Shown piece by piece: positions 35,737 to 58,225 of a stretch of 64,000 bases of DNA. The notes under the pieces were generated by a model. That model ran no database searches. It worked only from the letters and a program-made list of their open reading frames with translations, and had not been told where the DNA came from. Where the stretch lies: positions 9,149 through 73,148 of the forward strand of contig CALVHN010000001.1 of the NCBI GenBank assembly GCA_944327845.1, given 5' to 3'. A program made the translations under genes and the position numbers. Numbering within the stretch: the stretch's first letter is position 1; every line of letters begins with the position of its first letter. The stretch is from an uncultured Bacilli bacterium. GTDB taxonomy: Bacteria; Bacillota_I; Bacilli_A; RFN20; CAG-826.

Positions 35737-36459
35737 ATGAGAAAATTTTTAAAATTAGGAATTTGTTTAGTCGTTGGTGCAAGTTTTTTATTAACTAGTT
35801 GTGGAGAAACTGCTATTACCCAAGCAGAAGCTACTACTAAATTTAAAGCAATGGATGCTAAAAAGGCATTTGATGAATTAAATGGTTTAGAAGTCACTGC
35901 AACTATTGAAGCTAAGGGTGAAACTGTTGAGGAAACAGGCAAAGCTGAAGTTAAGTTCCAAGTTGATTTTACAGAAACTAGCGTTTATTTATATATGGAA
36001 GTATCAATGACACAAGGTGATAAAACCGAAGAAATGAAAGGTTTAATGTATATTGATGGGACAACTGCTTATAGTGGCGAATCTGTTAATGGTGAGGTAA
36101 ATGAAGCTACTATTACTGTAGAACAAGTTAAAACTCAATTTACGGAAGCTAAGGATTCAACTATTTATCCCATGGCTAATAATGAAGAACTTAGTGCAAT
36201 GGTATTTGGTGCAGCTGAAACAACATTTGACTATTTTGAATTAAGTGATGGTGGATTAAAAGTAAGTGGAGAAAGTTCAGCTACTGTTGGTGGTGATGGT
36301 GTTGTCCAAAAAATAAACATTGAATATACTAGTGCTGGATTATTAAGATTAGTTGATGCTGAAATTAATACAACTGTTAATGGTGTTACAACAGGAATGA
36401 TCATCAATTATGAGATTGATTACAACGCTAACTTTACTAAATTAACTTCTTTAAAATAA
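35737..36459 (+). CDS. lipoprotein (240 aa)
   Basis: Signal peptide with lipobox 'LLTSC' ('MRKFLKLGICLVVGASFLLTSCGE'). A GGAGG ribosome-binding site lies upstream. Confidence 0.6.
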   Translation: MRKFLKLGICLVVGASFLLTSCGETAITQAEATTKFKAMDAKKAFDELNGLEVTATIEAKGETVEETGKAEVKFQVDFTETSVYLYMEVSMTQGDKTEEMKGLMYIDGTTAYSGESVNGEVNEATITVEQVKTQFTEAKDSTIYPMANNEELSAMVFGAAETTFDYFELSDGGLKVSGESSATVGGDGVVQKINIEYTSAGLLRLVDAEINTTVNGVTTGMIINYEIDYNANFTKLTSLK

Positions 36460-36515
36460 TAAAAATTTTTATCAATTACACTTAGTAAGATTTTTAAAAT
36501 TAAAGCAAAAAACAA

Positions 36516-36551
36516 AATCTGTGAGGGTAAGCTCGCAGATTTTTCTTTTTA
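36516..36551 (+). terminator. rho-independent terminator after the lipoprotein gene
   Basis: 10-bp stem AATCTGTGAG / CTCGCAGATT with one G-U pair, loop GGTAAG, then TTTTTCTTTTT. Confidence 0.55.
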
Positions 36552-36953: not shown

Positions 36954-37098
36954 AAAAAAAAAAAAAAATTTATTAAAATTAAATAAAAAAAAAAAAAAAA
37001 AAAGTAAAAAAAAAAAAAAAAAAATTAATAGAACAAATATAATAAAAAAAAATAACAAAATAAATGACCTAAAATAAAAAAAAAAAAAAAAAAAAAAA
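36954..37098. repeat. cluster of five homopolymeric poly(A) tracts (15, 19, 19, 9 and 23 nt) upstream of the surface-protein operon
   Basis: Direct reading: A15 at 36954-36968, A19 at 36985-37003, A19 at 37006-37024, A9 at 37044-37052, A23 at 37076-37098. A TTGACA -35-like hexamer follows at 37164. Confidence 0.9.
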
Positions 37099-37241
37099 CG
37101 ACCATTAAAATTAAATAGAAATAATGGATACAAAAGTAAGAAAAAAATAAAAAAAATTAAGGTTTGACACTATAAACCTTGACTATTTATCATTTGGCAC
37201 CATGCATAAATGGAAATAGATTTTTAAAAGGGGGATATATT

Positions 37242-37874
37242 ATGCATAAGAAATTTTTTACATTTGCTGTCCCATTATTAGGAGCAGCTGTATTAGTTGG
37301 TGCTGGTTTTTCTGCTTGGGTTTTCCAAGGTGAAGGATCTGCAAAAATTACTGGAACTATTAGTGTTACACCAGCTATTGATACCTTAAATGTTCAACTT
37401 TATAAAGATGCTAGCACTAAAGCAGATGAAGTTAGTGCTGTAACACTTACCTTAGATCAAGGTGGTGTAATGAATAATGATGTAACTAAAGGTGCAACCA
37501 CTGATGTTTCTTCGTATGATATTCTTGTTACTTTTACTGAAACAGATGGTGCTTTAGCTGCTTTATTTGATGATTTTCAGTTAACTTTAGATGCAGAAAT
37601 TAGTGTTACTGCTGCAACAAAAGGTGATGCATCTAGCGATATTTTAACAACTTTTATAAATTATGTTGATTTAACTGATGATTCTAAAACAGCAACTGGT
37701 AATTTTACCGTTTATGATGAAAATAGTTTTGTTATCGAAGACGTAGATTTATTATGGACTTATGCTCAAAAACCTACAAGTTATGGTGAATATAATGCAA
37801 TGAATACAGCATTAAGTGGTGCTAATTTTACCATTACTGTAAGAGTTACTGCAGATTGGACTCCTAGAATTTAA
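37242..37874 (+). CDS. secreted protein with a 'GAGFSAWVF' signal-peptide motif
   Basis: The ATG at 37242 is preceded by a GGGGGA ribosome-binding site. N-terminus 'MHKKFFTFAVPLLGAAVLVGAGFSAWVFQGEG'. The ORF track starts earlier, at 37179. Confidence 0.6.
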   Translation: MHKKFFTFAVPLLGAAVLVGAGFSAWVFQGEGSAKITGTISVTPAIDTLNVQLYKDASTKADEVSAVTLTLDQGGVMNNDVTKGATTDVSSYDILVTFTETDGALAALFDDFQLTLDAEISVTAATKGDASSDILTTFINYVDLTDDSKTATGNFTVYDENSFVIEDVDLLWTYAQKPTSYGEYNAMNTALSGANFTITVRVTADWTPRI

Positions 37875-37914
37875 TTAGATTTAAATAATAATTAATCACT
37901 AAATAAAAAGGAAA

Positions 37915-38595
37915 ATGTACTTACTTAATAAGATAAAAAATATTGCTATTCCACTTTTAGGATTTACTACATTAGTTTCAACAGGGTTTGGAGCATGGGT
38001 CTTTCTTGGATCCATGTCCAGCTCTTATGAAATTAGATCAACTCAAGTAAATGTTACAAGAGTTAATGATTCTATAGGTAAGCTTGAAATCAATGATAGA
38101 ATCCATCTTTATGAAACTCCATATATTTTAACTTTTGAAGTTGGAAGTGGAGAGGATTTTACAAGTAGTGAAGTTGGTGTTGAGCTTTCAAATAATATTG
38201 AATATAAATTCTATGAGTTTTATCAACCAGAAGAGAATTATGGATATTATTTAAGCTATAGAGTTATTTATAGTGCAAATAGTATTTATGATCAATATGT
38301 TGTAATAAAGGATTTAGCAAATTCTGGAACTAATGAAGCAGATGGAAGATTATATCAAGAATCTCATCAAATTTTATTAGATTCAAGGTTATTTAATGAA
38401 TCATCTACTTTAGATAAAGCAAATAATCCTTATTATGAACTTAATGATGATTTATACATTGACTTTAATTGGAAAGAACATACAAAACCAATTACCGCAA
38501 GTGCATATAATGCATTTTTATCTTCAGTACATGATTCAAGTATCAATTTACCAATCGAAATTGAATTAAAAATTACGTATCAACGAATAAATTAA
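37915..38595 (+). CDS. secreted protein with a 'TGFGAWVF' signal-peptide motif
   Basis: N-terminus 'MYLLNKIKNIAIPLLGFTTLVSTGFGAWVFLGS'. Second of three same-strand genes sharing the motif. Confidence 0.6.
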   Translation: MYLLNKIKNIAIPLLGFTTLVSTGFGAWVFLGSMSSSYEIRSTQVNVTRVNDSIGKLEINDRIHLYETPYILTFEVGSGEDFTSSEVGVELSNNIEYKFYEFYQPEENYGYYLSYRVIYSANSIYDQYVVIKDLANSGTNEADGRLYQESHQILLDSRLFNESSTLDKANNPYYELNDDLYIDFNWKEHTKPITASAYNAFLSSVHDSSINLPIEIELKITYQRIN

Positions 38596-38643
38596 TAATT
38601 AATAAATTTATTTACTCTATATGGAAAGGAGCAAAGCTTTAAA

Positions 38644-41022
38644 ATGAATAAAGTACTTTTGTTTTTTAAATCAAAACCGCTTGCTATTTTATTAATAGTA
38701 TTCTTTATTGTTTTTGGAAGCTTTGCTTCGATTGGTTTTTCTAATTGGATCTTTGAAAGTGAAACAACAGATACAAAAGACAATATTGGATTAGATTCAG
38801 ATCCAATTAGAGAAAATGCAACATTTAATGATGGCTTCGATGTTGTTGATCGAGGCATTCAAACATATGATGTTTATTTTATGGCTCAATCTGTGCCTTA
38901 TACTACTTTATTTGGTAATGATGGATTTAATCAAAATGAAAATAATCAAATTGTTCAACCTTACTATACCTGTATGAATTATGGATCAGCATATGGTTAC
39001 AATGTAAATTATGGTCATTTTGATCAATACGATAATGTTACTGATTGGGAATCAAATAACTTCAACAAATATTTTCTTAAATTCGAAAATAGAGCTGAAA
39101 TATCTATGAGTGATTTGGGTAATATTCCTAACCCAAAAAATAAATTAGTTGATGGAAATAATTGGCCAAAAGATGGCTCTGGTTTAAGATTTGCTGGATG
39201 GATGATTTATCCTTATGATATTTATTTTAAAGAAAGTGGTTCTCATTCTTTAAACCAAGTTTATGGTTGGTATCCTTCGGATATTCTTTCTTCGGACTCG
39301 TCAATTCCTGCTTTTGAATTATTTAATAGTAACGCTTTATTATCTACTTACGATAATATAGCAATTAATGTTAATGGAAAAAAATCATTATTTTTATTTC
39401 CTCTATTTACTACTAATAAAAATTATTACGAACAAAGAAATCAACGTCCACAAAATGTAAGAGATTCTATCTCTATACAGAAAAAAGAATCGAATGGTAA
39501 AAATTTAGGTGAAAACTATTTTATTTATAGTTCTAATTTATCTCAAGGTTTAAGAACTGAATTAGGTTTAAAGACTTCTGATACAAGCGTTAATGTTTTT
39601 CAAATTAATAATTATACGATTGATTCAAAAGATTATAACGATGCAAATATAAGAATAGATATCATAAATGATATGGATAGAAACGATGGATCGTGGGAAG
39701 GAAATCAAAATTTTTATCAGTATGGCGGTAAACATTATGTTCAAAACAGTGATACTTTTAGTGATACTTTTGAAGATAATTTTGATTTAAAAAAGAGCAG
39801 TGGAAGATTTAATATTTATCTAATTGTTAAAGAGGCTTATGATTCAAACAGTGGTGGTTTTAGTAGTCATGATTATAATTTTAATTTTGGAAATAACACT
39901 TTCTTAAAGACTGATATTCAGACTATAGATAGTTTTTTCTCTAATAATAATATTGGTAAATATATTTCATTTAATCTAGGTACTTATGTATCACGACATG
40001 AGAGTGGCGGTTGGCTTAGTTGGCATACATATGGTGATACAAGAGATTATTACATTTACTATGAAAGACTATATGAACCTCGTTTAATTGGTGGAGAAAC
40101 AAATGAATTAAATTATGATTCTGAACGTTCAATTTCCGATCACTTCGTCCGCCAAGGAACCAAAGAATATTTAAAAGATAGATATGAACTTGCTGGTGTT
40201 AATCTTGATGGTAGTCAAACTATTGAATTACCAATTTCTAATGGAAGAAGAACTATGCTAATTCCTAATTATTATTTTGGTATTCAATTAACTCCAGAAA
40301 ATTTCTTTACAACTTATACCTTTGCTTTTAAAGATGAGAGTCAAAACCAAACACCTGAATGGCCTAAATTAAAATTAGAAAATGATGATGAAGTTATTGA
40401 GCAACCATTTTCATCTTCATCAATGTTTAGAATTTATGATCCTGATAGAGACCATGATATCTATATTCGCGAAAGTAATGGTGAAGTGAAAACTCTTCAA
40501 GAAGCAAATTATGATTTTGATGCAAACCCTATAGAATTAATTAAACCTATTAATAAAGGAAACGATGCAATTGGTATTTATACAATCACAGTAGATGTTG
40601 AATATGGCGAAGATGGTTCAGGAAGAACTGTCCCAAAAACAATTTATATTTATGGATATCGACTTTTAAATATTTTTGTTAACATCTGCGATGATAAAAC
40701 ATTTAAAACTGGTTTAAGTCTTGGTGGAGATAGAAATAATAATTTTGTTGATACGAGCAGTTATTCTTATCGAAAAGATAATTATTACCAACTTCAAACT
40801 CTTACTTTAGAAGATAGATTTACAGATACAAATGATTCAAATGAAATAACTTTAGGAGAAATTTTAACTAATTTAAGTTCTCAAAATAAGTGTTTACAAG
40901 AATTAGTTACTCATAGATATATAACTTATGAATCATTAGATCCTAATAATAGTGAATATGTTCCTTTTGTTATACGTAAAAATTATGTATTTATGATTGT
41001 TGATAAACCAACAGCAAATTAA
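38644..41022 (+). CDS. large secreted protein (792 aa) with an 'IGFSNWIF' signal-peptide motif
   Basis: N-terminus 'MNKVLLFFKSKPLAILLIVFFIVFGSFASIGFSNWIFESE'. N/D/Y/G-rich extracellular composition. Confidence 0.6.
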   Translation: MNKVLLFFKSKPLAILLIVFFIVFGSFASIGFSNWIFESETTDTKDNIGLDSDPIRENATFNDGFDVVDRGIQTYDVYFMAQSVPYTTLFGNDGFNQNENNQIVQPYYTCMNYGSAYGYNVNYGHFDQYDNVTDWESNNFNKYFLKFENRAEISMSDLGNIPNPKNKLVDGNNWPKDGSGLRFAGWMIYPYDIYFKESGSHSLNQVYGWYPSDILSSDSSIPAFELFNSNALLSTYDNIAINVNGKKSLFLFPLFTTNKNYYEQRNQRPQNVRDSISIQKKESNGKNLGENYFIYSSNLSQGLRTELGLKTSDTSVNVFQINNYTIDSKDYNDANIRIDIINDMDRNDGSWEGNQNFYQYGGKHYVQNSDTFSDTFEDNFDLKKSSGRFNIYLIVKEAYDSNSGGFSSHDYNFNFGNNTFLKTDIQTIDSFFSNNNIGKYISFNLGTYVSRHESGGWLSWHTYGDTRDYYIYYERLYEPRLIGGETNELNYDSERSISDHFVRQGTKEYLKDRYELAGVNLDGSQTIELPISNGRRTMLIPNYYFGIQLTPENFFTTYTFAFKDESQNQTPEWPKLKLENDDEVIEQPFSSSSMFRIYDPDRDHDIYIRESNGEVKTLQEANYDFDANPIELIKPINKGNDAIGIYTITVDVEYGEDGSGRTVPKTIYIYGYRLLNIFVNICDDKTFKTGLSLGGDRNNNFVDTSSYSYRKDNYYQLQTLTLEDRFTDTNDSNEITLGEILTNLSSQNKCLQELVTHRYITYESLDPNNSEYVPFVIRKNYVFMIVDKPTAN

Positions 41023-41037
41023 GTTAAAGGAGAGAGT

Positions 41038-43392
41038 ATGGGACATTTAATTACTTTAGTAAATGCATCAAAGATTGAAGCAATCTCACTTGCAATATCA
41101 ATCACAGTCATCGTTCTTTTATTTATTACACTTGCAGTATCTTTATATTTATATTATCGATACTATAAAAAATGTATCGATAATAAGATTGAAGATTCAT
41201 ACATTAAAAATGAAATAAAAGGTGAAAATAAAAAGTTTTTTAAACGTTTTGAAAGCTTAAAAAATAATCAAGAATTAACTAAAGATCAAAAGATTGATAA
41301 ATATAATGAAGAATTATTAGTTGAATATGTTGATAATAAAATTGGTAATAATAATTTTATTAAAGTAATTGCTAATTTATTCTTAATTATTTTCTATGTT
41401 TGCTTAATTGCTATTATGGGTTTTGCTATTTATACTCGAAGCCAAGGAGATACTATTCCTCTTGGAAATAGCTATTATGTTGTTATCCAAACTGGATCAA
41501 TGGAAGAAAAAAATAGTGCAAATACTTACTTAGAAGAAAATAATTTAAATGATCAAATCGAGACATTTTCTTTAATTGGATTAGATTATGTTGATAGTCC
41601 AGATGAATTAGAACAATATGATATTGTTGCTTATTATGATGATGATAACAATTTAATTGTTCATAGAATTATTAATATTACTTATGATGAAAATAATAAT
41701 CCTATCTATACTTTAAGAGGTGATAGCAATACTTTCTCAAATAGTGATGAAAGAAGTTTAACTTTTGATGATATCGAAGGAAAATATAATGGATTTCAAA
41801 ATTTTGGCTTAGGTTTAACTATCAATTATATGAAATCTAATATTGGCATAATTGCTATATCTTTAGGCTTAATTTTAATTATGATCTATGACTACTTTGA
41901 TATCTTACTAGGTAAAAGAATTAAATTAAGAAAAGAAGAAATTTATCCTTTAATTGATGAAGAAAATATTAATACTTTAAAAGGTTTGACTTATGTTCCT
42001 GTTATTGAAGAAGAAGTTAAAGAAGAAACGATAGAAGAAATAAATGAAACACCTTTAGAAGAAGTTATTGAAAATAAAGAGGAAGTTTTAACTACAAATA
42101 GCGAAGAAAATAAAGATGAAATCTTAGTTAATCAAGAAATAAATAATGAAAATAATCTTCAAGATATAAATATTGAAACACAAGAAGAAAATAAACCTGA
42201 TATAGATGTAGTTGTTGTTCCTATTGTTCAAAAAACTAAAAAAGCTCGTAAAAAGATGATTCCATTTAACGATAAACTTTTAAGAGCAAGTGATGACTTA
42301 AAATTAAAATATGAATACTTAAGAGATTATATTTTAAGCTTTGGATTAAAACATCGTATTTCAAGACAATTTGATAATTATTCATTACATAGAGTGAGAT
42401 ATTTCTGTTTTGTTTTAAGAGGAAAAGCTTTATTTATTCACTTTAAACTTGATATTAATGATTATGCAGATTCAACAATTCCAGTTAAATTAGATGATAA
42501 AGTTAAATATCAGGATGTTCCAGTAATCTTTAAAGTTAAATCTAATCTTTCATTAAAACGTGCTAAATCTTTAATTGATGATGTTATGAGCAATGAAGGA
42601 TTTGAACAAAAATATGAATTTATCTCTCATTTTAATTTAAATGATATCGATGAAACTGAAGAAATTGAAGATGATTTTGAAGATGAATTTGATGATAATG
42701 ATTACGAAATTGAAGAAGTAGAAACTACTAATGAAAATAATGAAGAAGAAAAAGTAGTTGAAACTGATAATTTAAATGATAATGAAGCTTCTAATGAATC
42801 TATTGAAGATGATAATTCTAATGTCGAAATTAATAAAGAAGAATCTGATGAAGAAGAATTAAAAGACAATAATGAAGACACTGAAGATGAAAAAGATGTT
42901 GAAGTAGAAGAAGACTCTAACGACATCGAAGAAGAACAAAATATTTCTTTTGATTCACAAAATGAAGAAAATAATGATCAAGTTATTAAGGTTAAAAGAA
43001 AGAGAAATCCTGTTGTTAAACTTTCAACTAAACTTAATTTAATTCCTCAAGATTTAAAAGAAAAATATGATGAAATTATAAAATATGCTTCTAATTATGG
43101 ATTAAAAGGTAGAATTTCTAATACTCAATATACTTTTAGACTTCATAGAGTTACATATATTGTTGTTCAAATTAGAAATAATGCTTTAAGATTACATTTT
43201 AAACTTGAAGAATCTGATTTTGATGAAAATAATAAGATTCCATTTAAAAATGATTCAAAGAAAGCCAAGTTTATTGATACTCCAATCTTCTTTAAAGTTA
43301 AATCTAAATTATCTTTAAAAAGATGTAAAATGATGATTGATGTTTTAGCTAAAAAGTATAATTTTGAAAAGAAAGATGAATCTATAAATTAG
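41038..43392 (+). CDS. membrane protein carrying a SipW-type (S26B) signal-peptidase domain, an acidic linker and two tandem ~125-aa C-terminal domains
   Basis: Peptidase boxes 'VVIQTGSMEE' (Ser box), 'YDIVAYY...LIVHRII' (His box) and 'YTLRGDSN' (compare SipW 'SGSMEP', 'THRV', 'KGDNN'), flanked by transmembrane segments. Residues ~403-525 and ~645-775 are clearly paralogous ('...LHRVRYFCFVLRGKALFIHFKLD...FKVKSNLSLKRAKSL' against '...LHRVTYIVVQIRNNALRLHFKLE...FKVKSKLSLKRCKMM'). Confidence 0.5.
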   Translation: MGHLITLVNASKIEAISLAISITVIVLLFITLAVSLYLYYRYYKKCIDNKIEDSYIKNEIKGENKKFFKRFESLKNNQELTKDQKIDKYNEELLVEYVDNKIGNNNFIKVIANLFLIIFYVCLIAIMGFAIYTRSQGDTIPLGNSYYVVIQTGSMEEKNSANTYLEENNLNDQIETFSLIGLDYVDSPDELEQYDIVAYYDDDNNLIVHRIINITYDENNNPIYTLRGDSNTFSNSDERSLTFDDIEGKYNGFQNFGLGLTINYMKSNIGIIAISLGLILIMIYDYFDILLGKRIKLRKEEIYPLIDEENINTLKGLTYVPVIEEEVKEETIEEINETPLEEVIENKEEVLTTNSEENKDEILVNQEINNENNLQDINIETQEENKPDIDVVVVPIVQKTKKARKKMIPFNDKLLRASDDLKLKYEYLRDYILSFGLKHRISRQFDNYSLHRVRYFCFVLRGKALFIHFKLDINDYADSTIPVKLDDKVKYQDVPVIFKVKSNLSLKRAKSLIDDVMSNEGFEQKYEFISHFNLNDIDETEEIEDDFEDEFDDNDYEIEEVETTNENNEEEKVVETDNLNDNEASNESIEDDNSNVEINKEESDEEELKDNNEDTEDEKDVEVEEDSNDIEEEQNISFDSQNEENNDQVIKVKRKRNPVVKLSTKLNLIPQDLKEKYDEIIKYASNYGLKGRISNTQYTFRLHRVTYIVVQIRNNALRLHFKLEESDFDENNKIPFKNDSKKAKFIDTPIFFKVKSKLSLKRCKMMIDVLAKKYNFEKKDESIN

Positions 43393-43422
43393 GTTAATTC
43401 TCAATCATTCTTATTATTTATT

Positions 43423-43478
43423 ATCTATTCGATTTAAGTGAAAGATTATATCTTATTTAAATCGAATAGATTTTTATT
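43423..43478 (+). terminator. long-stem terminator after the surface-protein operon
   Basis: Perfect 15-bp inverted repeat ATCTATTCGATTTAA / TTAAATCGAATAGAT with a 19-nt loop, followed by TTTTATT. Confidence 0.5.
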
Positions 43479-44918: not shown

Positions 44919-44994
44919 GGGTGTTTAGCTCAGCTGGGAGAGCATCTGTTTGACGTACAGAAGGTCACAGGTTCGAGCCCTGTAGCACCCACCA
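44919..44994 (+). tRNA. tRNA-Val (GAC)
   Basis: Cloverleaf: acceptor GGGTGTT/AGCACCC, D-arm GCTCAGCTGGGAGAGC, anticodon stem TCTGT/ACAGA with loop TTGACGT, T-arm GGTTCGAGCC, and an encoded CCA. Confidence 0.8.
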
Positions 44995-45046
44995 GTTTGT
45001 TATTTATAAGGAGAGGATTTATTAAAATCCTTTTTTATTAGAAAAA

Positions 45047-45119
45047 GCACCAATAGTTCAGTGGTAGAACACTAGCTTCCCAAGCTAGTTATGCGGGTTC
45101 GATTCCCGTTTGGTGCTCC
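45047..45119 (+). tRNA. tRNA-Gly (anticodon loop TTCCCAA, read as CCC)
   Basis: Acceptor GCACCAA/TTGGTGC, D-arm TAGTTCAGTGGTAGAAC typical of tRNA-Gly, anticodon stem CTAGC/GCTAG, and T-arm GGGTTCGATTCCC. Confidence 0.7.
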
Positions 45120-45166
45120 GACTTATATTGAAATTAAGACTTAGGGTATATATGACTTAAGTCTTT

Positions 45167-45859
45167 TTATTTGCTATTTTCATCCTTTGAAATAAGTTCT
45201 TCTAAAAGAAGACCAACATTAGAACCAAGGTTATTTTTTAACATTTTTAAATCTTCACAGAAAAATTTCTCGTTTTTTATTGCTGTCTGGATTTTGTCTT
45301 TAAACTTTTCAAAATTTAAATTTGATTTTGTACAATTAAAAAAATCAGATAATTTAATTTCTAAAAATCTTTTTCCTCCTTTTCTAGTTTTTCGATTCTC
45401 TAACATCGCTTTAGGATCTAATGTAAAAATCTTATCATCATGCATTAATAAAAATAGTTCAAATGTTGGGTTAGAAAGACAAATATTATAGTTCTCATTT
45501 TCACATTTATTAAAGAATTCATCTAATTGTTCTTCTTTAAAGTTTTGTGGATCTCTATCTATTATAAAGAAAACTTTATCAATCTTTGGATCATAAGTAA
45601 TTTTATTGTCCTTAATTGATTTTTTAAAATTTTTAAGTTTAAGTAATGGATGGCTTTGTCCATTTTCATCAATCTCATTTTTTATTAACCTTATATCAAT
45701 TAAATAATTTATGTTTAAATAATCAGTATTTGCTTTTATACCTTGAAAATATTTAATTTCAGTAACATCTCCTTCAGTAACAATGAAGTATTTAGACTTT
45801 GGTTCGATATTACCTCTTTTTCTTGTTAAATTAAGATTATTTTCATTTAATTCTCTCAT
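45167..45859 (-). CDS. RloB-like protein (AbiLii-like partner of the AAA ATPase)
   Basis: N-terminal 'KYFIVTEGDVTEIKYF' and C-terminal 'FFIIDRDPQ...CLSNPTFELFLLMH' match the RloB-family pattern (IVCEGEKTE...SNPcFElWlLLH). Translationally coupled to the upstream ATPase. Confidence 0.6.
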   Translation of the reverse strand: MRELNENNLNLTRKRGNIEPKSKYFIVTEGDVTEIKYFQGIKANTDYLNINYLIDIRLIKNEIDENGQSHPLLKLKNFKKSIKDNKITYDPKIDKVFFIIDRDPQNFKEEQLDEFFNKCENENYNICLSNPTFELFLLMHDDKIFTLDPKAMLENRKTRKGGKRFLEIKLSDFFNCTKSNLNFEKFKDKIQTAIKNEKFFCEDLKMLKNNLGSNVGLLLEELISKDENSK

Positions 45860-47277
45860 TAATAATTATCTCCAATTGAAGACGTGACTTCAAAAGTTGG
45901 TATGCCTCCATATCGACCTTCTAAATACGCTTTATCAATTTTTTTATCAAATCTTTCGTTATATTTTTCTAATGAATAAAGGGTAGTTGGACCATTTTTG
46001 TCTCTATCTGTAAACCATATTTCATCTCTTCTTAATAAATTGAAATCTAACAATCTCGATTCATGAGTAGTAACGACTAATTGGCTATTTTCTGTTGCTT
46101 CAAGAAAATATTTAACAAATTCATAAGTTAATTCTGGATGAAAACATCTATCTAATTCATCGATAAAGTATACTTTTTCTCCTTTTGTATTTAAAAGTAC
46201 ACCAATTAAATCAAATAATCTTTGTGTTCCATCTGATTCTTCGATAAATAAATAATCACCATCATTGTTTTTATGGTTTAAAACTACTTTCTTAACATTA
46301 TATTGATTATTGTCTCGATTAATAAAAAACATTTCTCGGTTGATGCGTAAAGAAACTAATGGTTTTTCAGTAATGTTATTTTTAACTCGGTTAATATAAG
46401 CGGTATCTAAATTATTTAACATATTTTTTAAAAATTCTGGTGGAAGATTTAAACTTAATAATTCATCTAAAGAACTATCAACTAAATTACATTGACTTAT
46501 ACCTGTTCCAAATTTTGAAATTAATTCATTAATTTTATTAAGACTTTCTTCAGATAAAAATAGTGGAGAAGAGTCTAAACTTAATTGTGGGAATATTATA
46601 ACTAATGAGTTTAAAAACCAATTATAAATATCTTTAAAAATAGTTACATTGTTGTCGTTATATTCTCGATATAAGGTATCTTTATTTTTATTCATAATTG
46701 TTAAAAACAAAATAGTATCTTGATCTTTCATATCTGAATAATAAACATCTAACCTTTTTAAGATTTCTTTGTTGTTATTGAAATAATTGTTATCTAGATT
46801 AATGTTTTCGTGTAATTTACGATTAAAAATTAATTCTTCTTTATTTGATTTTTTATTAAGTTTATATAGCCATTCAGCTTTAATGCTATTTTTGGATAAC
46901 AAAATGTCAAAGCCGTAGGCATATAAATTATTATTAATTTCAATTTCAAAATCAAAAGAGCTCATTTTATCTTTATTTTCGGTATTTATTCGACAATATA
47001 AATTAGAACAATTTCCTCTAATACCACTTAATATTATATTTTTAGCAAAGGAAACGGCTTTTATTAAATTTGATTTTCCTGAAGAATTAGCTCCATAAAT
47101 TGCAGAAAATTTTAATAGTTTTAAATCATTATTTTTTTTAATGATGTGATTCTCTTTTTTTTTTGTACTTCCTGCAATCATCGAAAGTTCTTGTTCTTCT
47201 TGAAAAGATAAATAGTTTGATACTTTGAAATTGATTAACATTTTTTCTCCTTTAAAATGTGAAATTTTCACATTCAT
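45859..47277 (-). CDS. AAA-family (ABC-like/RloA-AbiLi-like) ATPase
   Basis: Walker A 'SAIYGANSSGKSNLIKA', a Q-loop region, Walker B 'VYFIDELDRCFHPE', and a D-loop/H-motif 'VVTTHESRLLD'. Its stop overlaps the start of the RloB-like gene. Confidence 0.7.
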   Translation of the reverse strand: MNVKISHFKGEKMLINFKVSNYLSFQEEQELSMIAGSTKKKENHIIKKNNDLKLLKFSAIYGANSSGKSNLIKAVSFAKNIILSGIRGNCSNLYCRINTENKDKMSSFDFEIEINNNLYAYGFDILLSKNSIKAEWLYKLNKKSNKEELIFNRKLHENINLDNNYFNNNKEILKRLDVYYSDMKDQDTILFLTIMNKNKDTLYREYNDNNVTIFKDIYNWFLNSLVIIFPQLSLDSSPLFLSEESLNKINELISKFGTGISQCNLVDSSLDELLSLNLPPEFLKNMLNNLDTAYINRVKNNITEKPLVSLRINREMFFINRDNNQYNVKKVVLNHKNNDGDYLFIEESDGTQRLFDLIGVLLNTKGEKVYFIDELDRCFHPELTYEFVKYFLEATENSQLVVTTHESRLLDFNLLRRDEIWFTDRDKNGPTTLYSLEKYNERFDKKIDKAYLEGRYGGIPTFEVTSSIGDNY

Positions 47278-51931: not shown

Positions 51932-54900
51932 ATGGCAGAAAAGTTGTTATTAGGTTTAGATATTGGAACTAATAGTGTTGGTTGGTGTTTAACAGATGAG
52001 AATTCGAAAATAATAAAAAAGAATGGAAAATATTTATGGGGAATTAGATTATTTGATGAATCTAAATCATGTAAAGATAGAAGAATTTATCGATCAACAA
52101 GAAGGAGATGTGCTAGAAGAAAACAAAGGTTAGCATTACTCCAAGATTTATTTGAAAAACCGATGTCTAAAATTGACCCATATTTTTTTAGAAGGCTTAA
52201 GGTTTCTCAAATTAAAAACGAAGATAGAAATGATGAATTTAATTTGAGTGAATATAAAAATAAATATTTATTCTCTGACCATCAAGAAGAAATAGAATTT
52301 TATAACAAATATCCAACAATCTATCATCTAAGATTAGCTTTAATTAATTCTAACGAAAAAATCGATTTAAAATATTTATATTTAGTCTGCGCACATTATA
52401 TTAAATATCGTGGGCATTTTTTATTCGAAGGACAAGATTTTAATGTTGAAAACGGTGCAAGCATTGCACAAAGTTTAAATTGTTTATTAAATGAAGATAA
52501 TGAAAATAATGTTTTGTTTGAAACTAAGGATCTCGATGAAATATATGATATTTATTCAAATAAAAAATTAGATAAAAAAGATAAAGTTAATAAAATTAGA
52601 GATTATTTATTTAATAAAGTTTATGAAGTAAATAATGATGAAAATGAAAAAATATATTTAGGATATATTGCTCAATTATTTTTAGATTCTAAAGTTGATG
52701 CTAAAAAAATTTATAAAGATAAGGACTTAGATTTAGATAATACAACAATAAGTTATGATTCTGATGATTTTGATTCGATTATTGATGAATTAATAAACGT
52801 CTCTTCTGATTATGATATAGATTCATCTTTTTTTGAAAATATAAAGGAATTAAAGAAAGTATATGATTACTTAAAGTTAAAAAATATTTTAGGAGATTCG
52901 ATTTATATATCAGAAGCAATTGTTAAAAGATTTGATAAACATAAGGAAGATTTAATAAAGTTAAAGAATTTTGTAAAAACAAATTTTGATAGAGAAACAT
53001 ATAAGAAGGTATTTATAAATGTTGATGATAAAGTTTGTAATTACCCTCATTTTGTCGGTTCTTCTTTAGTTAAAGGGAAAAAGAAAACAATTTCAAAATG
53101 TAAAAAAGATGATTTTTATAAATTTTTAGAAACTACATTAAATATTAAAAGAAATGAAATAGTTAAAGAAGAAAATGAATTAAGTGATAAAGAATATATT
53201 GAAAAAAGAATGTATGATGGAACTTTTTTAGAATTATTACGTTCAAGTCAAAATAGATTTATACCTTATCAATTAAATAAAAAAGAATTAGAAATTATTT
53301 TAAATAATCAATCTAAATATTATGAATTTTTAAATGAAAGTGATGATTATGGAACAGTTAAAGATAAAATAATAAGTTTATTAACATTTAAAATCCCATA
53401 TTATGTTGGTCCATTAAACGAATCTAGTAAATTTGCTTGGATTAAGAAAAAACAAAATCAAAAAATTACTCCTTGGAATTTTAATGATATTGTTGATAAA
53501 GATGCATCTGAAAATGAGTTTATTAAACGAATGGCAAATCATTGTTCTTATTTGTTCAAAGAAGAAACCTTGCCTAAAGAATCACTTCTTTATCAAGAAT
53601 ATGAACTTTTATCTACATTAAATAAACTTTATATAAATAATCAGCCAATAACTAATGAGATAAAAACTTTCTTAATTGATGTATATAAAAATAGAGGTAC
53701 TAAAATTAGTTTAAAAGATTTAAAAAGAATAATTAGTGATAGATTTGGTGATGGAAATGAAATAATTTTAACGACATCCAATGATAAAGAATTAGATGAA
53801 AATTATTTATCCGATTCTTTAAGTTCTTTTAAAAAGTTTTCTAATATTTTTGGAAAAAATTATGTTGAAAGTAATGTTGAAAAAATTGATCAAATAATTT
53901 CAATATGTACAATTATATCTGATAAAAATAGATTAAAAGATTATTTAATAAAAGAATTTAAATTGAATGAAGAGGATGCAATTAAAGTATCTAAATTAAA
54001 GTTTTCTAAATTTGGTAGACTTTCAAATAAACTTCTCTGTAAGTTAAAAGGAATCGATTCAAAAACTGGTGAAGTTATATGTGATAAGAGTATTATCCAA
54101 TTAATGAGAGAAACTAATCAAAACCTTATTGAAATTATAAATAATAAAAAATATGGCTTTCCTGCAGCAATTAATTTAGAAAATAGCGAATTTTTAAAAG
54201 AAAAATATGGAAATAAAGAATTATCTGATGAACAAAAGATTTTAGATTTCATTGATAAACTTTATATTTCTCCAAAATTAAAAAGACCATTAATTCAAGC
54301 AATGAAGATTATTAATGAACTTGAAAATATAATGGGTTCAAAAGAAAAAGGTAAAAGGTCAATCGATGAATATTATATTGAAGCAACTAGAGGACCAGAT
54401 ATAAAAGCAAAAGGTAAAGCAACAAAAAGTAGAAGGCAAAAGATGCTCGAAATTTATAAAGATGCAAAAGATTTTGTCGATGAATATGATAGCAGCAAAG
54501 CAATTTTATCTAATTTAAATGGAGTTGAGGATTCCAGATTAAATAGTAAAAAAGTTTTCTTGTATTTTAGACAATTAGGAAAGGATCTTTATACTGGTAA
54601 TCCAATTGATTTTGATAGATTAGAAACTGATTACGATATTGATCATGTATTTCCTCAATCTAAAATTAAAGATGATAGTTTTGATAATTTAGTTTTAACT
54701 TTAAAGGAAAATAATTCAGATAAAGGTGATATATATCCAATTCCTTATGATAGTTTTCGTGAAAAGCATAATTGGTCTAGTAAAATAAGAAATAGATTTT
54801 TTGAAAAACTGCATAAAAATAAATTTATAAGTGAAACTTTATATCATAGATTAACAAGACTAACTCCATTAACTGAAAATGAATTATTTAATTTTGTTAG

Positions 54901-56260
54901 TTCTCAAATAACAACTACATCTCAAGCAGTTAAAGCAATTAAAGATACAATATTGCAGTTTAAAACTAATAACGAAAATAAAGAGCCTGCTGTAATTTTA
55001 TCGAAGGCTCAAGTTATATCAGATTTTAGAAAGAATCATGATTTATTAAAATGTAGAAAAGCTAATGATTTTCATCATGCTCATGATGCTTATTTAAATT
55101 TGATTGTTGGAAGAGCCGTCAATGAGTATTTTACTAAATATATTGCTAGAAAATCTTATTTAAAGAATTTTGATATTTCTAAAAAATTAACAACAAATAT
55201 TAATAAATTTTTAGATAGTAAAGATTCTAAAGGCAGTGATTTAAATAGACCTAATATATATGATGGAGATTATCTAGTATGGGATTATAAAGATGAGAAA
55301 ACTTTGAATGAAATAAAATATAATATTTATCATAATTTTAATATTTTACATACAGTTAGAACTTATGAAAAAGCTGGTATATTTTCTCAAGTAACAATAT
55401 CTCCAAGCAATCCAAAAGGTTATGCATTATCAATTAAAAATTCAATAGGAAACCCATTATCTAATTCAATTAAATATGGCGGATATTCACAATTATCTTT
55501 TGCATATATGATGCTAATCAAAAACTTAGATAAAAATGATAAATATTTATTAATTATGGTTCCGAGTATTTATAAGGATAAATTGGAAACAAAGGAATTT
55601 AACGATTATGTTTTTGAAGAATATAATGTTAAAAATTTTGATATTATTTTACCCAAACTAAAAATAAACACACTGATTAAAGAAAACGAATCTGAGTTTA
55701 GGATAACAGGCAAAGCAGATGTAAGACTTGCATTAAAAAATAATAAATATGTGTTTTATAACGAGGATTATATTAAAACAATCAAAAATCTTTTTAAAAT
55801 AACAAATAAAATTTCTGAAATTGTTATCAATAAAAAATATAAAAATATTGATGCTTATATTAACGATAATTACAAACAAACATCTTTCGGAATTTATTTT
55901 GATGAAGAATTTATAAAATTAAACGGCGAAACTCTTATTACTAAAAGACAAATTGTAGATTTAAGTAATTTTTTGAAAAAAATTATAAAAAATAAGATAT
56001 ACGATTATGCTAGAAGTAGTTATGATACTATGGATAATTATTTGTCTTATGATAATGATTTATCTTTAATCAAAAATATGCTTATTTTAAAAGAGTGTAT
56101 TAATCGTTTACGAGATTCTTCTTTGACATTTAATCTCAAAGCGTTTGGAAAAGGAGTTATTTCAAGAGAAAGAATGCAATCGAATATTTCAAAGAAAATT
56201 TCAATAATTTATGAATCAACTACAGGATATTATCGAAAAGTTGTCTGGAGCAATGAGTAA
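51932..56260 (+). CDS. cas9: Cas9 (type II-A), 1442 aa
   Basis: RuvC-I 'GLDIGTNSVGW', arginine-rich bridge helix 'RRRCARRKQR', HNH 'DIDHVFPQSKIKDDSFDNLVLTLKENNSDKGD', and RuvC-III 'HHAHDAYL'. Followed by cas1-cas2-csn2 and the array. Confidence 0.95.
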   Translation: MAEKLLLGLDIGTNSVGWCLTDENSKIIKKNGKYLWGIRLFDESKSCKDRRIYRSTRRRCARRKQRLALLQDLFEKPMSKIDPYFFRRLKVSQIKNEDRNDEFNLSEYKNKYLFSDHQEEIEFYNKYPTIYHLRLALINSNEKIDLKYLYLVCAHYIKYRGHFLFEGQDFNVENGASIAQSLNCLLNEDNENNVLFETKDLDEIYDIYSNKKLDKKDKVNKIRDYLFNKVYEVNNDENEKIYLGYIAQLFLDSKVDAKKIYKDKDLDLDNTTISYDSDDFDSIIDELINVSSDYDIDSSFFENIKELKKVYDYLKLKNILGDSIYISEAIVKRFDKHKEDLIKLKNFVKTNFDRETYKKVFINVDDKVCNYPHFVGSSLVKGKKKTISKCKKDDFYKFLETTLNIKRNEIVKEENELSDKEYIEKRMYDGTFLELLRSSQNRFIPYQLNKKELEIILNNQSKYYEFLNESDDYGTVKDKIISLLTFKIPYYVGPLNESSKFAWIKKKQNQKITPWNFNDIVDKDASENEFIKRMANHCSYLFKEETLPKESLLYQEYELLSTLNKLYINNQPITNEIKTFLIDVYKNRGTKISLKDLKRIISDRFGDGNEIILTTSNDKELDENYLSDSLSSFKKFSNIFGKNYVESNVEKIDQIISICTIISDKNRLKDYLIKEFKLNEEDAIKVSKLKFSKFGRLSNKLLCKLKGIDSKTGEVICDKSIIQLMRETNQNLIEIINNKKYGFPAAINLENSEFLKEKYGNKELSDEQKILDFIDKLYISPKLKRPLIQAMKIINELENIMGSKEKGKRSIDEYYIEATRGPDIKAKGKATKSRRQKMLEIYKDAKDFVDEYDSSKAILSNLNGVEDSRLNSKKVFLYFRQLGKDLYTGNPIDFDRLETDYDIDHVFPQSKIKDDSFDNLVLTLKENNSDKGDIYPIPYDSFREKHNWSSKIRNRFFEKLHKNKFISETLYHRLTRLTPLTENELFNFVSSQITTTSQAVKAIKDTILQFKTNNENKEPAVILSKAQVISDFRKNHDLLKCRKANDFHHAHDAYLNLIVGRAVNEYFTKYIARKSYLKNFDISKKLTTNINKFLDSKDSKGSDLNRPNIYDGDYLVWDYKDEKTLNEIKYNIYHNFNILHTVRTYEKAGIFSQVTISPSNPKGYALSIKNSIGNPLSNSIKYGGYSQLSFAYMMLIKNLDKNDKYLLIMVPSIYKDKLETKEFNDYVFEEYNVKNFDIILPKLKINTLIKENESEFRITGKADVRLALKNNKYVFYNEDYIKTIKNLFKITNKISEIVINKKYKNIDAYINDNYKQTSFGIYFDEEFIKLNGETLITKRQIVDLSNFLKKIIKNKIYDYARSSYDTMDNYLSYDNDLSLIKNMLILKECINRLRDSSLTFNLKAFGKGVISRERMQSNISKKISIIYESTTGYYRKVVWSNE

Positions 56261-57132
56261 TGGGTTTTAGAACAGTAGTGGTTAAAAATAGATCTAAATT
56301 AGAAGTTTCATTAAACTATTTAGTTTGCAGAACTGTTGATGGAGAAAAAAGAATTTTACTCGATGAAATTGCTACTGTTTTAATTGAATCAACACAAGTT
56401 GCAGTTACTAGTTCTTTACTTTCAGCTTTGGCTGAAAAAAATATTAATTTAATTATTTGTGATTCTAAACATAATCCAGTTTCACAAATGTTAAGTTTAT
56501 ACGGAAGTTATGATGCTTATCATAAACTATTAAAACAATTATCTTTTAGCGAGGAAAGAAAAGGTAATATTTGGGCTGCAATTATTAATAGAAAAATATT
56601 AAATCAATCTCGTGTATTAGAGATTTCTAATAAAGAAGATAGTTATAAAAAACTACTTGAATATGCTTCAGAAATTGAACGAGGTGATATAACAAATAGA
56701 GAAGGACATGCAGCCAAAGTTTACTTTAATAGTTTATTTGGAAATGAATTTTCGAGAAATCAAGAAAGAAAAGAAAATAAATATCTAGATTACGGTTATT
56801 CAATAATTTTAAGTTCTGTTTCTAGAGCAATAAAGTGTATAGGTTATTATACTGAATTAGGTGTTCATCATATTGGTAAAACGAATCCATTTAATTTATC
56901 TTGCGATTTTGTTGAACCTTTAAGACCTTTGATTGATTATCAAGTTGTTTCAAATAAAGTTAATGATGAAAATTATAAAAATACATTTGTCGATATATTA
57001 AGTTTAAATGTTGACTGTGATAATAAAAATATGCTTTTGGATAATGCTATAAAAACGTATGTTCAGTCATTATTTAATGCTTTAGATAATAATGATATAA
57101 GCAAAATAAAGTGGATTAATTATGAGCTCTAG
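56260..57132 (+). CDS. cas1: Cas1 (type II)
   Basis: 'GFRTVVVKNRSKLEVSLNYLV' N-terminus typical of type-II Cas1. 290 aa. Overlaps the cas9 stop. Confidence 0.9.
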   Translation: MGFRTVVVKNRSKLEVSLNYLVCRTVDGEKRILLDEIATVLIESTQVAVTSSLLSALAEKNINLIICDSKHNPVSQMLSLYGSYDAYHKLLKQLSFSEERKGNIWAAIINRKILNQSRVLEISNKEDSYKKLLEYASEIERGDITNREGHAAKVYFNSLFGNEFSRNQERKENKYLDYGYSIILSSVSRAIKCIGYYTELGVHHIGKTNPFNLSCDFVEPLRPLIDYQVVSNKVNDENYKNTFVDILSLNVDCDNKNMLLDNAIKTYVQSLFNALDNNDISKIKWINYEL

Positions 57133-57442
57133 ATTTATGAGATTAGTATTATTTTTTGATTTACCTGTTATTAAAACTTCTCAAAGAAAAGCTTATACAA
57201 AGTTTGTTAAAGATATAAAGAAAATTGGATTTTATATGTTACAAGAATCTGTATATATTAAGATGTGTTTAGATTCACAAGCTTCAAATTCAACTATAAA
57301 CAAAGTGAAGGACTTAGCGCCAAGCGAAGGTAGTATAATGATTTTAATGGTTACTGAAAAAGAATTTTCAGAAATGAAAGTCGTATGTGGAGAAAGTATA
57401 TCAGATGTTATTACTACTTCAGATAGGGTTGTAGTATTATGA
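57122..57442 (+). CDS. cas2: Cas2
   Basis: 106 aa, 'MRLVLFFDLPVIKTSQRKAYTKFVKDIKKIGFYMLQESVY'. Overlaps cas1. Confidence 0.9.
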   Translation: MSSRFMRLVLFFDLPVIKTSQRKAYTKFVKDIKKIGFYMLQESVYIKMCLDSQASNSTINKVKDLAPSEGSIMILMVTEKEFSEMKVVCGESISDVITTSDRVVVL

Positions 57443-58095
57443 TTTTAAAGTTTAGAGGAATTAATTATTCTTTTGAATATTGTGGTGGAGATATTTCTTT
57501 TTTAGTCATTGAAAGTAGAGAATTTTACTGGAAGCTTTTAAATTCTTTAAATGAATTAAATGAAGATAATATATTTTTAATAGATGATAAAAAGATTGAT
57601 TTAAAAAATGCGATTTTATTTTTTGATAGATTATTCGATTTGGATCCAAATAGTAAAAAAATACTATCCTTAACTTATCAAGATATAAATAAAATGTATT
57701 TAAATGATTCAATCAAAGTTAAAATAAGTGTAGCTAATGAAATACTTTTAGGAATTTTAGATAAGTTAGCTCTTGATGTTGATTTTAAGGCTAGATATGA
57801 AAGTGATTTAACATTGAATGATGTTTTAAATTTATATAAATTTAGATATGAAATTGAATCTAAATCTTTTATTGAAATGTTTCTTCAATATATAAAATCG
57901 TTGATGGTTGTTATGAAATATAAGTATGTTGTGACATTAAATTTATTAGACTTTATTGATAAAAATAATCTAGATTTGCTAAGTAATGAGTTAAAAATAC
58001 TAGGTTTAGACTTAATTGATATTTCAAGACACTCTTATAAATTAGAAAAATATAAAGAAATTCTTATTGATAATGATTTATGCGAAATATCGTAG
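57439..58095 (+). CDS. csn2: Csn2 (type II-A signature protein, short form)
   Basis: 218 aa, placed between cas2 and the array and overlapping cas2 by 4 nt. Confidence 0.8.
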   Translation: MILKFRGINYSFEYCGGDISFLVIESREFYWKLLNSLNELNEDNIFLIDDKKIDLKNAILFFDRLFDLDPNSKKILSLTYQDINKMYLNDSIKVKISVANEILLGILDKLALDVDFKARYESDLTLNDVLNLYKFRYEIESKSFIEMFLQYIKSLMVVMKYKYVVTLNLLDFIDKNNLDLLSNELKILGLDLIDISRHSYKLEKYKEILIDNDLCEIS

Positions 58096-58098
58096 TAA

Positions 58099-58225
58099 AA
58101 TTATATTGATAAAATAAATTTTATCAAAAAATAAAGACGAATTATGTCTTTATTAAAGTTATTGTTTCAAGCCTAAAACAGGTAATTAATTCTAAAATCT
58201 CTGTTATTTGTTTATATAATTTGAG
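58099..58225 (+). promoter_or_regulatory. CRISPR leader
   Basis: AT-rich 127-bp region between the csn2 stop and the first repeat. Confidence 0.5.

Follow-up and report, generated by a model that had tools for sequence, protein, structure and literature searches.

A SipW/Sec11-type signal peptidase with a long cytoplasmic tail, encoded next to three secreted proteins with a common, private signal-peptide motif

Four genes on the forward strand of the analyzed window (the whole stretch of 64 kb), here called P1 to P4, span positions 37242-43392 and are, taken as a whole, probably best explained as a dedicated export and processing system in which P4 cuts P1, P2, and P3 at a private site. An ORF check of the window agreed with the genes described in an earlier sequence-only reading, except that P1 has 210 instead of 211 residues and that the end coordinate given there (43478) lies 86 bp beyond the P4 stop codon.

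P1 (37242-37874, +; 210 aa) is the putative major secreted subunit, P2 (37915-38595, +; 226 aa) is a distant paralogue of P1, and P3 (38644-41022, +; 792 aa) is a large secreted protein with a conserved DPIREN box, while P4 (41038-43392, +; 784 aa) is a predicted SipW/Sec11-type signal peptidase that has three TM helices and a cytoplasmic tail. A longer ORF for P1, starting with TTG at 37179, was rejected in favor of ATG 37242, because a GGGGG ribosome-binding site stands in front of the latter and orthologues conserve the resulting MHKKF. The best sigma-70-like promoter of the region, a consensus match only (TTGACA-18-TATCAT, 11/12 matches), was located at 37164-37193 (+), and the P1 ATG follows 49 bp further on. 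The poly(A) tracts previously seen in front of the operon are five in number (A15, A19, A19, A9, and A23; 36954-37098, +) and precede the putative -35 hexamer by 66-210 bp. In a sister strain (L042) they read A14, A16, A10, A14, and A34; a single A18-A22 tract is found in three other assemblies, and two contigs end within the tract.

The N-terminal hydrophobic segments of P1-P3 end in G-F-[SG]-x-W-[VI]-F, and the likeness among the three proteins is confined to this segment according to BLASTP. The versions named by the sequence-only reading, GAGFSAWVF, TGFGAWVF, and IGFSNWIF, were located at nt 37305, 37984, and 38734, respectively, with the putative cleavage site as GFS↓AWVF (37305-37325), GFG↓AWVF (37984-38004), and GFS↓NWIF (38734-38754). 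When the six reading frames of the window were scanned with a regex, the motif turned up at these N-termini and nowhere else, and neither the upstream lipoprotein nor the other secreted proteins of the window carry it. Across 35 loci of other genomes, 46 of the 269 same-strand ORFs within 6.5 kb of peptidase genes have the strict motif, compared with 0 of the 337 other ORFs. Against the concern that it might be a generic anchor found on many unrelated proteins, the motif occurs in the window only at P1-P3 and in the 35 loci only beside a peptidase gene. Furthermore, the four-gene cassette recurs (L007, L008, L011-L023, and other loci) between unrelated flanking genes, its synteny is kept from Bacilli-like lineages to Clostridia, and the MAG UBA6879 contains two cassettes, each with a different version of the motif. 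Comparative genomics therefore supports the proposal of a dedicated peptidase with private substrates.

P4 could also be the housekeeping signal peptidase of a reduced genome, with P1-P3 as ordinary substrates and the motif as a lineage-specific signal-peptide composition. Small Mollicutes-like genomes commonly encode few peptidases, our view of the peptidase set spans only the 64 kb window and 20 kb flanks, and P4 scores below the equivalog cut-offs of the SipW and archaeal models (given below), all of which would suit a housekeeping enzyme. We nevertheless regard this explanation as improbable, since it would have to accommodate secreted proteins of the window that lack the motif, the absence of the motif from all non-neighbor ORFs of the 35 loci, two separate peptidase and substrate cassettes in one MAG, and a synteny that holds from Bacilli-like lineages to Clostridia.

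The private motif can be read as a signal-peptidase site, [GA]-[FY]-[SAG]↓x-[WF]-x-F, whose P2' residue is aromatic like that of TasA. All 49 cases have G, A, or V at -3, though the regex left this position free, and position +1 is variable; with a small -3 and a variable +1, the pattern fits the -3/-1 rule. In distant Clostridia cassettes the motif grades into GGVYA↓TFNY and GGTYA↓TWRY. The pattern beside the sipW-type gene can be written as small, aromatic, small ↓ any residue, aromatic, and its register relative to TasA comes from hhalign, which placed GFS↓AWVF of the P1 family on TWA↓AFND and ITGTISV on FASGTLDL, with E=0.0042 but a probability of only 8% and over the N-terminal 53 columns only. 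The mature form of TasA begins at A28, as in 8AUR. The sequence-only reading had pointed to TIGR04088, the model for SipW-cognate signal peptides (cut-off of 19 bits), but neither full-length P1-P3 nor their N-terminal fragments matched it at E<=10, whereas TasA as a positive control scored 38 bits. If the motif is indeed cleaved by P4, it would define a further SipW-dependent signal-peptide class that is missed by current models.

Taking the motif as prepilin-like was rejected. In that case P1-P3 would be pilins whose class III (type IV prepilin-like) signals are cut by a prepilin peptidase, and P4 would have nothing to do with their maturation. G-F-x-x resembles the G↓F-T-L-I-E box of prepilins, but the prepilin motif precedes the hydrophobic core, whereas the motif of P1-P3 comes after it. 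Secretion of BsaC in Clostridium perfringens depends on type IV pilus proteins (PMC11580942), yet neither PilD nor PilB-like genes were found in the cassette or its flanks, which leaves the prepilin explanation with hardly any probability.

The enzyme that would act on the private site, P4, is judged by its sequence an ER/archaeal-type (S26B) signal peptidase with predicted activity. The boxes TGSMEE, VHRII, and RGDSN that had been recognized in the fourth gene are present, and residues 109-290 match the NCBIfam SipW model NF046067 (E=4.9e-15, 55.6 bits, model positions 2-166 of 189) as well as the archaeal signal peptidase I model TIGR02228 (E=1.3e-7). Because both scores are below the equivalog cut-offs (190 bits for NF046067 and 51.85 bits for TIGR02228), P4 is a divergent relative and not an equivalog. 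Pfam gave no match on P4 at E<=1. A PDB sequence search with P4 alone returned nothing significant, and the N-terminal module profile gave weak SEC11 matches. The homologue search was also repeated with this profile, the whole-protein search having been dominated by low complexity and limited to 15 matches. Across 7 homologues, S154 (GSME), H209 (VHR), and D229 (RGDxN) do not vary; the family profile brings the His and Asp boxes into line with human SEC11A/C, and SGSMEP is the counterpart of the GSME box. The catalytic residues of Bacillus subtilis SipW are S47/H87/D106 (PMC8767453), so that the His-to-Asp spacing is 20 residues in P4 versus 19 in SipW, and the Ser-to-His spacing of 55 versus 40 indicates an insertion in P4.

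Hydrophobic segments of P4 comprise residues 10-42, 105-135, and 264-292. In silico, hydropathy and a positive-inside charge pattern place the catalytic domain outside the membrane between the canonical TM pair, with an extra helix before it. This extra N-terminal TM helix (residues 10-42) and a conserved K/R-rich cytoplasmic loop (residues 39-106; YYRYYKKCIDNKIEDSYIKNEIKGENKKFF) are encoded at 41065-41355 (+) and are also present in homologues of ~330 aa that have no tail. The extracytoplasmic catalytic domain (residues 132-262; 41431-41823, +) contains Ser154 (41497-41499), His209 (41662-41664), and Asp229 (41722-41724). It is followed by the third TM helix (residues 264-292; 41827-41913, +), which was assigned from hydropathy and charge distribution and precedes KRIKLRK. 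K/R clusters lie in the loop and just after the third helix, and the catalytic domain has a net charge of -18.

The predicted substrates belong to two undescribed families without annotation. P1 and P2 fall into one superfamily in an iterated HMM search, and P3 has only the N-terminal 38 columns, that is the signal region, in common with the P1 family (hhalign). Pfam and NCBIfam scans of P1-P3, 10 family relatives, and 12 P3 orthologues gave nothing usable. The TasA, camelysin, and BsaA models (PF12389, NF046066, and TIGR04090) matched neither P1-P3 nor the 10 relatives; a sub-threshold TIGR04090 match (E=0.027) was seen at the N-terminus of one Clostridia P1 relative (L032 locus). PDB sequence searches with the P1 and P3 profiles found nothing significant, and structure searches gave no link of the substrates to TasA or camelysin. 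The expectation that the secreted proteins are fibre or matrix proteins thus found no backing from HMMs or structure searches. One sequence, P0032, in which an 850-bp contig fuses the N-terminus of P1 to part of a sortase, is probably an assembly chimera and was left aside. As for a donor strand at the N-terminus, conservation of residues 29-45 (G38, V42, and T43) together with their pLDDT below 50 in the monomer model is suggestive only.

The center of P1 is hypervariable and full of insertions and deletions, and a comparison of two strains gives identities of 99.4% for the peptidase module, 82.6% for P1, and 90-91% for the flanking genes. Together with the variation of the upstream poly(A) tracts between assemblies, the missing fold link to TasA, and the lack of a C-terminal anchor or LPXTG motif in P1-P3, this faster divergence of P1 would also be expected if the three proteins kept their signals as uncleaved anchors. 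They would then be membrane-tethered variable antigens or adhesins that are switched by poly(A), as in Vlp-type systems of Mycoplasma, and not fibre subunits, while the motif would be a membrane-interface or oligomerization element. This is an unlikely reading but one that deserves to be kept in mind. A small -3/-1, a variable +1, and an aromatic +2 are the pattern of a peptidase site and not of a helix end, the motif always adjoins a catalytically intact peptidase with a strongly conserved module, and the poly(A) tracts are found before the -35 hexamer and not within the promoter spacer.

In the preferred reading of a dedicated processing system, P1, P2, and P3 would be exported via Sec by their N-terminal signal peptides, and P4, as the Ser-His-Asp peptidase of the same operon, would cut them at the private site. 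An aromatic P2' is indicated by PMC10269814 to block LepB and to make SipW necessary; the P1-P3 precursors are likewise probably poor substrates for LepB-type enzymes and would thus depend on P4. Cleavage would expose the conserved N-terminal segment x-T-G-T-I-x-V-T of P1 and P2, which is disordered in the monomer model, and the secreted proteins would probably assemble into a surface structure, in which the variable P1 would form the major subunit, P2 would serve as a minor or anchoring one, and P3 would be a large accessory protein or adhesin. Should this be correct, the pairing of a dedicated SipW with substrates of its own, the principle behind the biofilm fibres of Bacillus and Clostridium, would extend to low-GC MAG lineages that are labelled Bacilli or Mollicutes, are uncultured, and are mostly associated with the gut.

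The architecture that the sequence-only reading had singled out as unusual is present in P4: beyond the extra TM helix, the protein has acidic linkers (residues 301-396, net charge -24; residues 527-651, net -52) that alternate with two basic domains of 42% mutual identity. The first copy (residues 397-526, net +12; 42226-42615, +) has a YdhG/YjbR/MotA-CTD-like fold, and the second comprises residues 652-784 (net +16; 42991-43389, +). The assignment of the tail domain to a YdhG/YjbR-like (DUF1801/DUF419) fold was made by structural similarity; 14 aligned tail-domain sequences had no Pfam or NCBIfam match, a PDB sequence search with their profile gave nothing significant, and one distant family protein (P0067) matched DUF1801 at E=6e-5, below the cut-off. 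The family comprises ~3,300 clusters at 50% identity, and its domain occurs in membrane proteins as 1-7 tandem copies with acidic linkers between them, always cytoplasmic to a TM helix; a uL15-like (PF00828) domain often comes next. Signal peptidases and giant surface proteins are thereby revealed to carry, in their cytoplasmic tails, a large domain family that has no match in Pfam or NCBIfam.

As the extra domains of P4 are cytoplasmic by the predicted topology, they can have no part in extracellular assembly. The tail probably adds a second, non-proteolytic function, either regulatory or nucleic-acid binding, for which there is a precedent in the cytoplasmic C-terminus of B. subtilis SipW that controls the expression of matrix genes (PMC8767453). 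A far more speculative idea, to which we give a rather low probability, is that this unrecognized and widespread module of SipW-like peptidases and giant surface proteins tethers nucleic acid (DNA, rRNA, or ribosomes) or the transcription machinery to export sites at the membrane. The peptidase would then be a membrane-bound regulator or organizer and a much-enlarged version of the bifunctional SipW C-terminus. The joint occurrence of the tail domain with a ribosomal uL15-like domain raises the question of whether export sites are coupled to cytoplasmic nucleic acid.

Several known systems can be compared with this operon. The catalytic boxes of P4 align to eukaryotic SEC11A/C, but Sec11 acts within a multi-subunit complex, whereas P4 is a single polypeptide with additional TM and cytoplasmic modules. 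In its fold, the tail resembles YdhG-like proteins (DUF1801), YjbR/MmcQ (DUF419), and the C-terminal domain of phage T4 MotA, while the 14 tail sequences themselves match no Pfam or NCBIfam model.

Donor-strand filaments of the TasA-like kind, together with a larger partner resembling TapA, are found across the domains of life, but the archaeal loci for the bundling pili AbpA/AbpB have no dedicated peptidase gene (PMC9245690). The C. perfringens operon sipW-bsaA-bsaB-bsaC likewise consists of four genes, encoding SipW, two small, paralogous TasA-like matrix proteins, and one large secreted protein, and the Bsa family shows a highly divergent sequence with a disordered N-terminal donor segment (PMC11580942). 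P3, however, has neither a von Willebrand A domain nor another Pfam domain; the N-E-K isopeptide triad was not found, P1 and P2 fall short of TIGR04090, and the architecture of the C. perfringens peptidase differs from that of P4.

With tapA-sipW-tasA of B. subtilis, the operon shares an ER-type Ser-His-Asp peptidase encoded together with its own substrates, aromatic residues at -2 and P2' (TWA↓AF in TasA and GFS↓AW here), a conserved x-G-T-[LI]-x-[LV] segment after the cleavage site, and a cytoplasmic C-terminus of the peptidase, which has a second function in B. subtilis (PMC8767453). It differs in that the substrates match no TasA, camelysin, or TIGR04088 model, in the gene order with the peptidase last, in the third TM helix, the conserved cytoplasmic loop, and the 490-aa tail of P4 (compared with a 20-residue tail in SipW), and in its hosts, which are uncultured low-GC lineages represented by MAGs only. 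The logic of tapA-sipW-tasA that the sequence-only reading had proposed, a peptidase in one operon with substrates carrying a private motif, is thus upheld by a layout that also matches sipW-bsaABC. What is known here is the layout of the biofilm-fibre operons, and what is new are the undescribed substrate families and the unusual cytoplasmic tail of the peptidase.

The operon at 37242-43392 is a new variant of the operon type that encodes a SipW alongside its own substrates; the observation and the main interpretation of the sequence-only reading hold. Four genes follow each other on the same strand, namely those of the secreted proteins P1 (37242-37874, 210 aa), P2 (37915-38595, 226 aa), and P3 (38644-41022, 792 aa) and of the peptidase P4 (41038-43392, 784 aa), with intergenic gaps of 40, 48, and 15 bp. 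Given this layout together with the BLASTP and six-frame regex results, the earlier description of the four genes was accurate as to arrangement and motif; in its details, P1 has 210 instead of 211 residues and the region ends at 43392 instead of 43478. The window belongs to a metagenome contig, has a G+C content of ~25%, and its open reading frames are intact under translation table 11. An identical P4 protein was found on 19 contigs from several samples. The nearest species-representative genomes are MAGs labelled as uncultured Bacillales, Bacilli, Firmicutes, or Mollicutes bacterium, and remoter relatives are MAGs of Clostridia and Oscillospiraceae; many of the relatives' MAGs are of gut or rumen origin.

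The similarity between P1, P2, and P3 is confined to their N-terminal 10-31 residues (BLASTP), and G-[FYW]-[SGTA]-x-W-[VILM]-[FYW] was retrieved solely at these three N-termini when all six frames of the window were scanned by regex. The cassette of two small proteins, a large protein, and a peptidase recurs in loci L007, L008, L011-L013, and others from different genomes, where the flanking genes are unrelated. In some loci the gene order or the number of small paralogues varies, and L014 and L015 carry four extra downstream copies. Across 35 loci with mechanically called ORFs, a strict form of the motif ([GA][FY][SAGC]x[WF]x[FY] inside the first 50 residues) was present in 46 of the 269 same-strand ORFs lying within 6.5 kb of the peptidase gene and in none of the 337 other ORFs, while only a single case occurred past residue 50. 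The proposal of a private signal motif beside a dedicated peptidase is thereby supported.

Sites of type I signal peptidases are recognized by small residues at both -3 and -1, with +1 unconstrained. Among 49 distinct motif instances, position -3 (left free in the regex) is G (40), A (6), or V (3), and position +1 varies between A, T, L, S, E, M, K, and D. Because this pattern matches the type I signature, cleavage would be expected at G-F-S↓A-W-V-F. Independently, hhalign placed this register on T-W-A↓A-F-N-D of TasA and the P1 segment I-T-G-T-I-S-V over F-A-S-G-T-L-D-L (E=0.0042, probability 8%), which is suggestive only; the TasA query was verified against PDB 8AUR, whose chain begins at A28. 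The Clostridia cassettes carry motifs such as GGVYA|TWNY, GGTYA|TWRY, GGVYA|TFNY, and GGIFA|AFQY, forms that bridge to the canonical SipW-type signal. In TasA, it is an aromatic P2' residue that hampers processing by LepB and creates the dependence on SipW (PMC10269814). One could also regard the P4-type enzyme as a housekeeping signal peptidase. The MAG UBA6879, however, holds two separate cassettes (L017 and L036) with differing motif versions: one combines a three-TM, tail-bearing peptidase with GFGLWQF-type motifs, the other a 244-aa peptidase with YAAFV-type motifs. This argues for dedicated pairs of peptidase and substrates rather than a housekeeping enzyme.

The assignment of the fourth gene to the S26 family is supported by matches of P4 residues 109-290 to the NCBIfam SipW model NF046067 (E=4.9e-15) and the archaeal signal peptidase I model TIGR02228 (E=1.3e-7), both scoring under the curated equivalog cut-offs; Pfam gave no match to P4. 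A profile built from P4 and six homologues brings VHR and RGDxN into register with human SEC11C and SEC11A (E=0.013-0.078) and, in a weak additional stretch, GSMEE with SGSMEP. Residues S154, H209, and D229 are invariant among the aligned homologues, and the His-to-Asp distance is 20 residues vs 19 in the B. subtilis SipW, whose S47, H87, and D106 are essential (PMC8767453). Hydropathy analysis places three membrane segments at residues 10-42, 105-135, and 264-292. In the loop 39-106, 15 positions are Lys or Arg, the net charge of the catalytic domain is -18, and KRIKLRK follows the third segment; according to the positive-inside rule, the catalytic domain would thus face the outside and the 490-residue C-terminal region the cytoplasm. 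The most conserved part of the P4 family is the N-terminal helix together with the loop YYRYYRKCIDNxLEDxYIxNEIKGENKKFF, which is also found in tail-less homologues of ~330 aa and is recognizable in the Clostridia enzymes.

The tail consists of acidic linkers and two basic YdhG/YjbR-like domains; P4 orthologues contain 0, 1, 2, or 3 copies of the domain. No match to the tail domain was found among Pfam, NCBIfam, and PDB sequence models. A search with the domain's profile through 1.84 billion representative proteins recovered 3,346 clusters at E<=1e-3, with up to seven copies per protein; examples are found among P0052-P0199 (e.g., P0071, P0153, and P0074), with 1-7 copies after a transmembrane segment. 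Within the best 150 tail-domain proteins, a hydrophobic segment precedes the first copy in 100 and follows the last copy in only 1; in 42 the C-terminal domain is uL15-like (PF00828). Some of the family's proteins are giants of 1,900-4,700 aa, whose Flg_new and beta-helix surface repeats precede the transmembrane segment. These data make the tail a modular cytoplasmic appendage on membrane proteins of surface display. SipW-like peptidases of other lineages carry the uL15-like C-terminal domain alone (P0257) or after two YdhG-like copies (P0139), so that the fusion of signal peptidases to such cytoplasmic modules is recurrent. Based on fold, charge, and the regulatory precedent of the SipW C-terminus (PMC8767453), it is hypothesized that the tail may act in nucleic-acid binding or regulation.

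The most promoter-like sequence in this region (TTGACA-18-TATCAT, 37164-37193) lies shortly 5' of P1. A terminator at 36514-36543 ends the preceding gene (35737-36459). The product of that gene, 240 aa long, bears a signal of the lipoprotein type (LLTSCGE), is positionally conserved in the sister strain (91% identity), does not contain the private motif, and matched no family. Five poly(A) tracts (A15, A19, A19, A9, and A23; 36954-37098) are located 5' of the -35 hexamer and the operon promoter. Tract lengths and number differ between assemblies: the sister strain has A14, A16, A10, A14, and A34, a single tract of 18-22 A is present in three assemblies of the window's own strain, and two contigs end inside the tract. 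The length differences are real, yet inseparable from short-read assembly collapse. Because the tracts sit outside the -35/-10 spacer, there is no support for a phase switch of the classical spacer-length kind; they might act through an UP element or through the curvature of the DNA.

Compared with the sister strain L042, identity amounts to 82.6% for P1, 96.9% for P2, 90.4% for P3, and 97.1% for P4 (99.4% in its peptidase module), with flanking genes at 90-91%. P1 is therewith the fastest-evolving gene of the neighborhood (its counterpart lies at 1684-2307 of L042), and at least 12 variants with 73-86% identity were found in public metagenomes. This pattern fits an exposed, diversifying major subunit (P1) next to a strongly constrained enzyme. 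P0032, a predicted protein of 217 aa encoded on an 850-bp contig, combines residues 1-46 of P1 with part of a sortase and is probably a chimera created during assembly.

Further downstream, genes for tRNA-Val(GAC) and tRNA-Gly(CCC), within 44919-47277, precede a minus-strand pair of an RloB-domain protein (45167-45859) and an AAA_21 ATPase (45859-47277), a pairing typical of a defence or abortive-infection-type module. The window also contains a type II CRISPR-Cas locus (51932-59571), in which cas9 (51932-56260, 1442 aa) is followed by three small ORFs (to 58095) and an array (~58226-59571) with at least 21 copies of the 36-nt repeat GTTTGAGAGTTATGTTATCTACGGTCGGTCTTGAAC and spacers of 29-30 nt.

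Iterated HMM searches of the fetched loci group P1 and P2 into one superfamily of ~60 proteins, Clostridia neighbors included, and P3 into a separate family of 17 members whose genes always adjoin a peptidase gene. Neither P1-P3 nor ten of their relatives were matched by any Pfam or NCBIfam model. TIGR04088 did not recognize P1-P3, even with the N-termini in isolation, while the TasA positive control scored 38 bits. In the P1 family, the N-terminal block ITGTISVTP is conserved and both LDQGG and KP are invariant; the center is hypervariable, with many insertions and deletions. The AlphaFold2 model of P1 (pLDDT 68 overall, 75-84 at residues 46-210, and <50 at residues 1-45) predicts a beta-sandwich of a broadly adhesin- or pilin-like type; membership in the TasA/BsaA family is not established. 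The operon adds a signal-motif class overlooked by existing models, substrate families without annotation, and a peptidase with three TM segments whose appended cytoplasmic domain is widespread and fits none of the current family models. The literature searched held no report of SipW-type systems in Mollicutes-like lineages. TasA and AbpA form donor-strand filaments (PMC9245690), and the Bsa proteins of C. perfringens possess a disordered N-terminal donor loop (PMC11580942). The C. perfringens sipW-bsaA-bsaB-bsaC operon, which encodes two small TasA-like proteins and a large one and whose family is highly divergent in sequence (PMC11580942), resembles P1-P4 in its combination of a SipW with two small and one large protein. 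A functional analogy to TasA/Bsa is drawn from this precedent, the operon logic, and the N-terminal segment.
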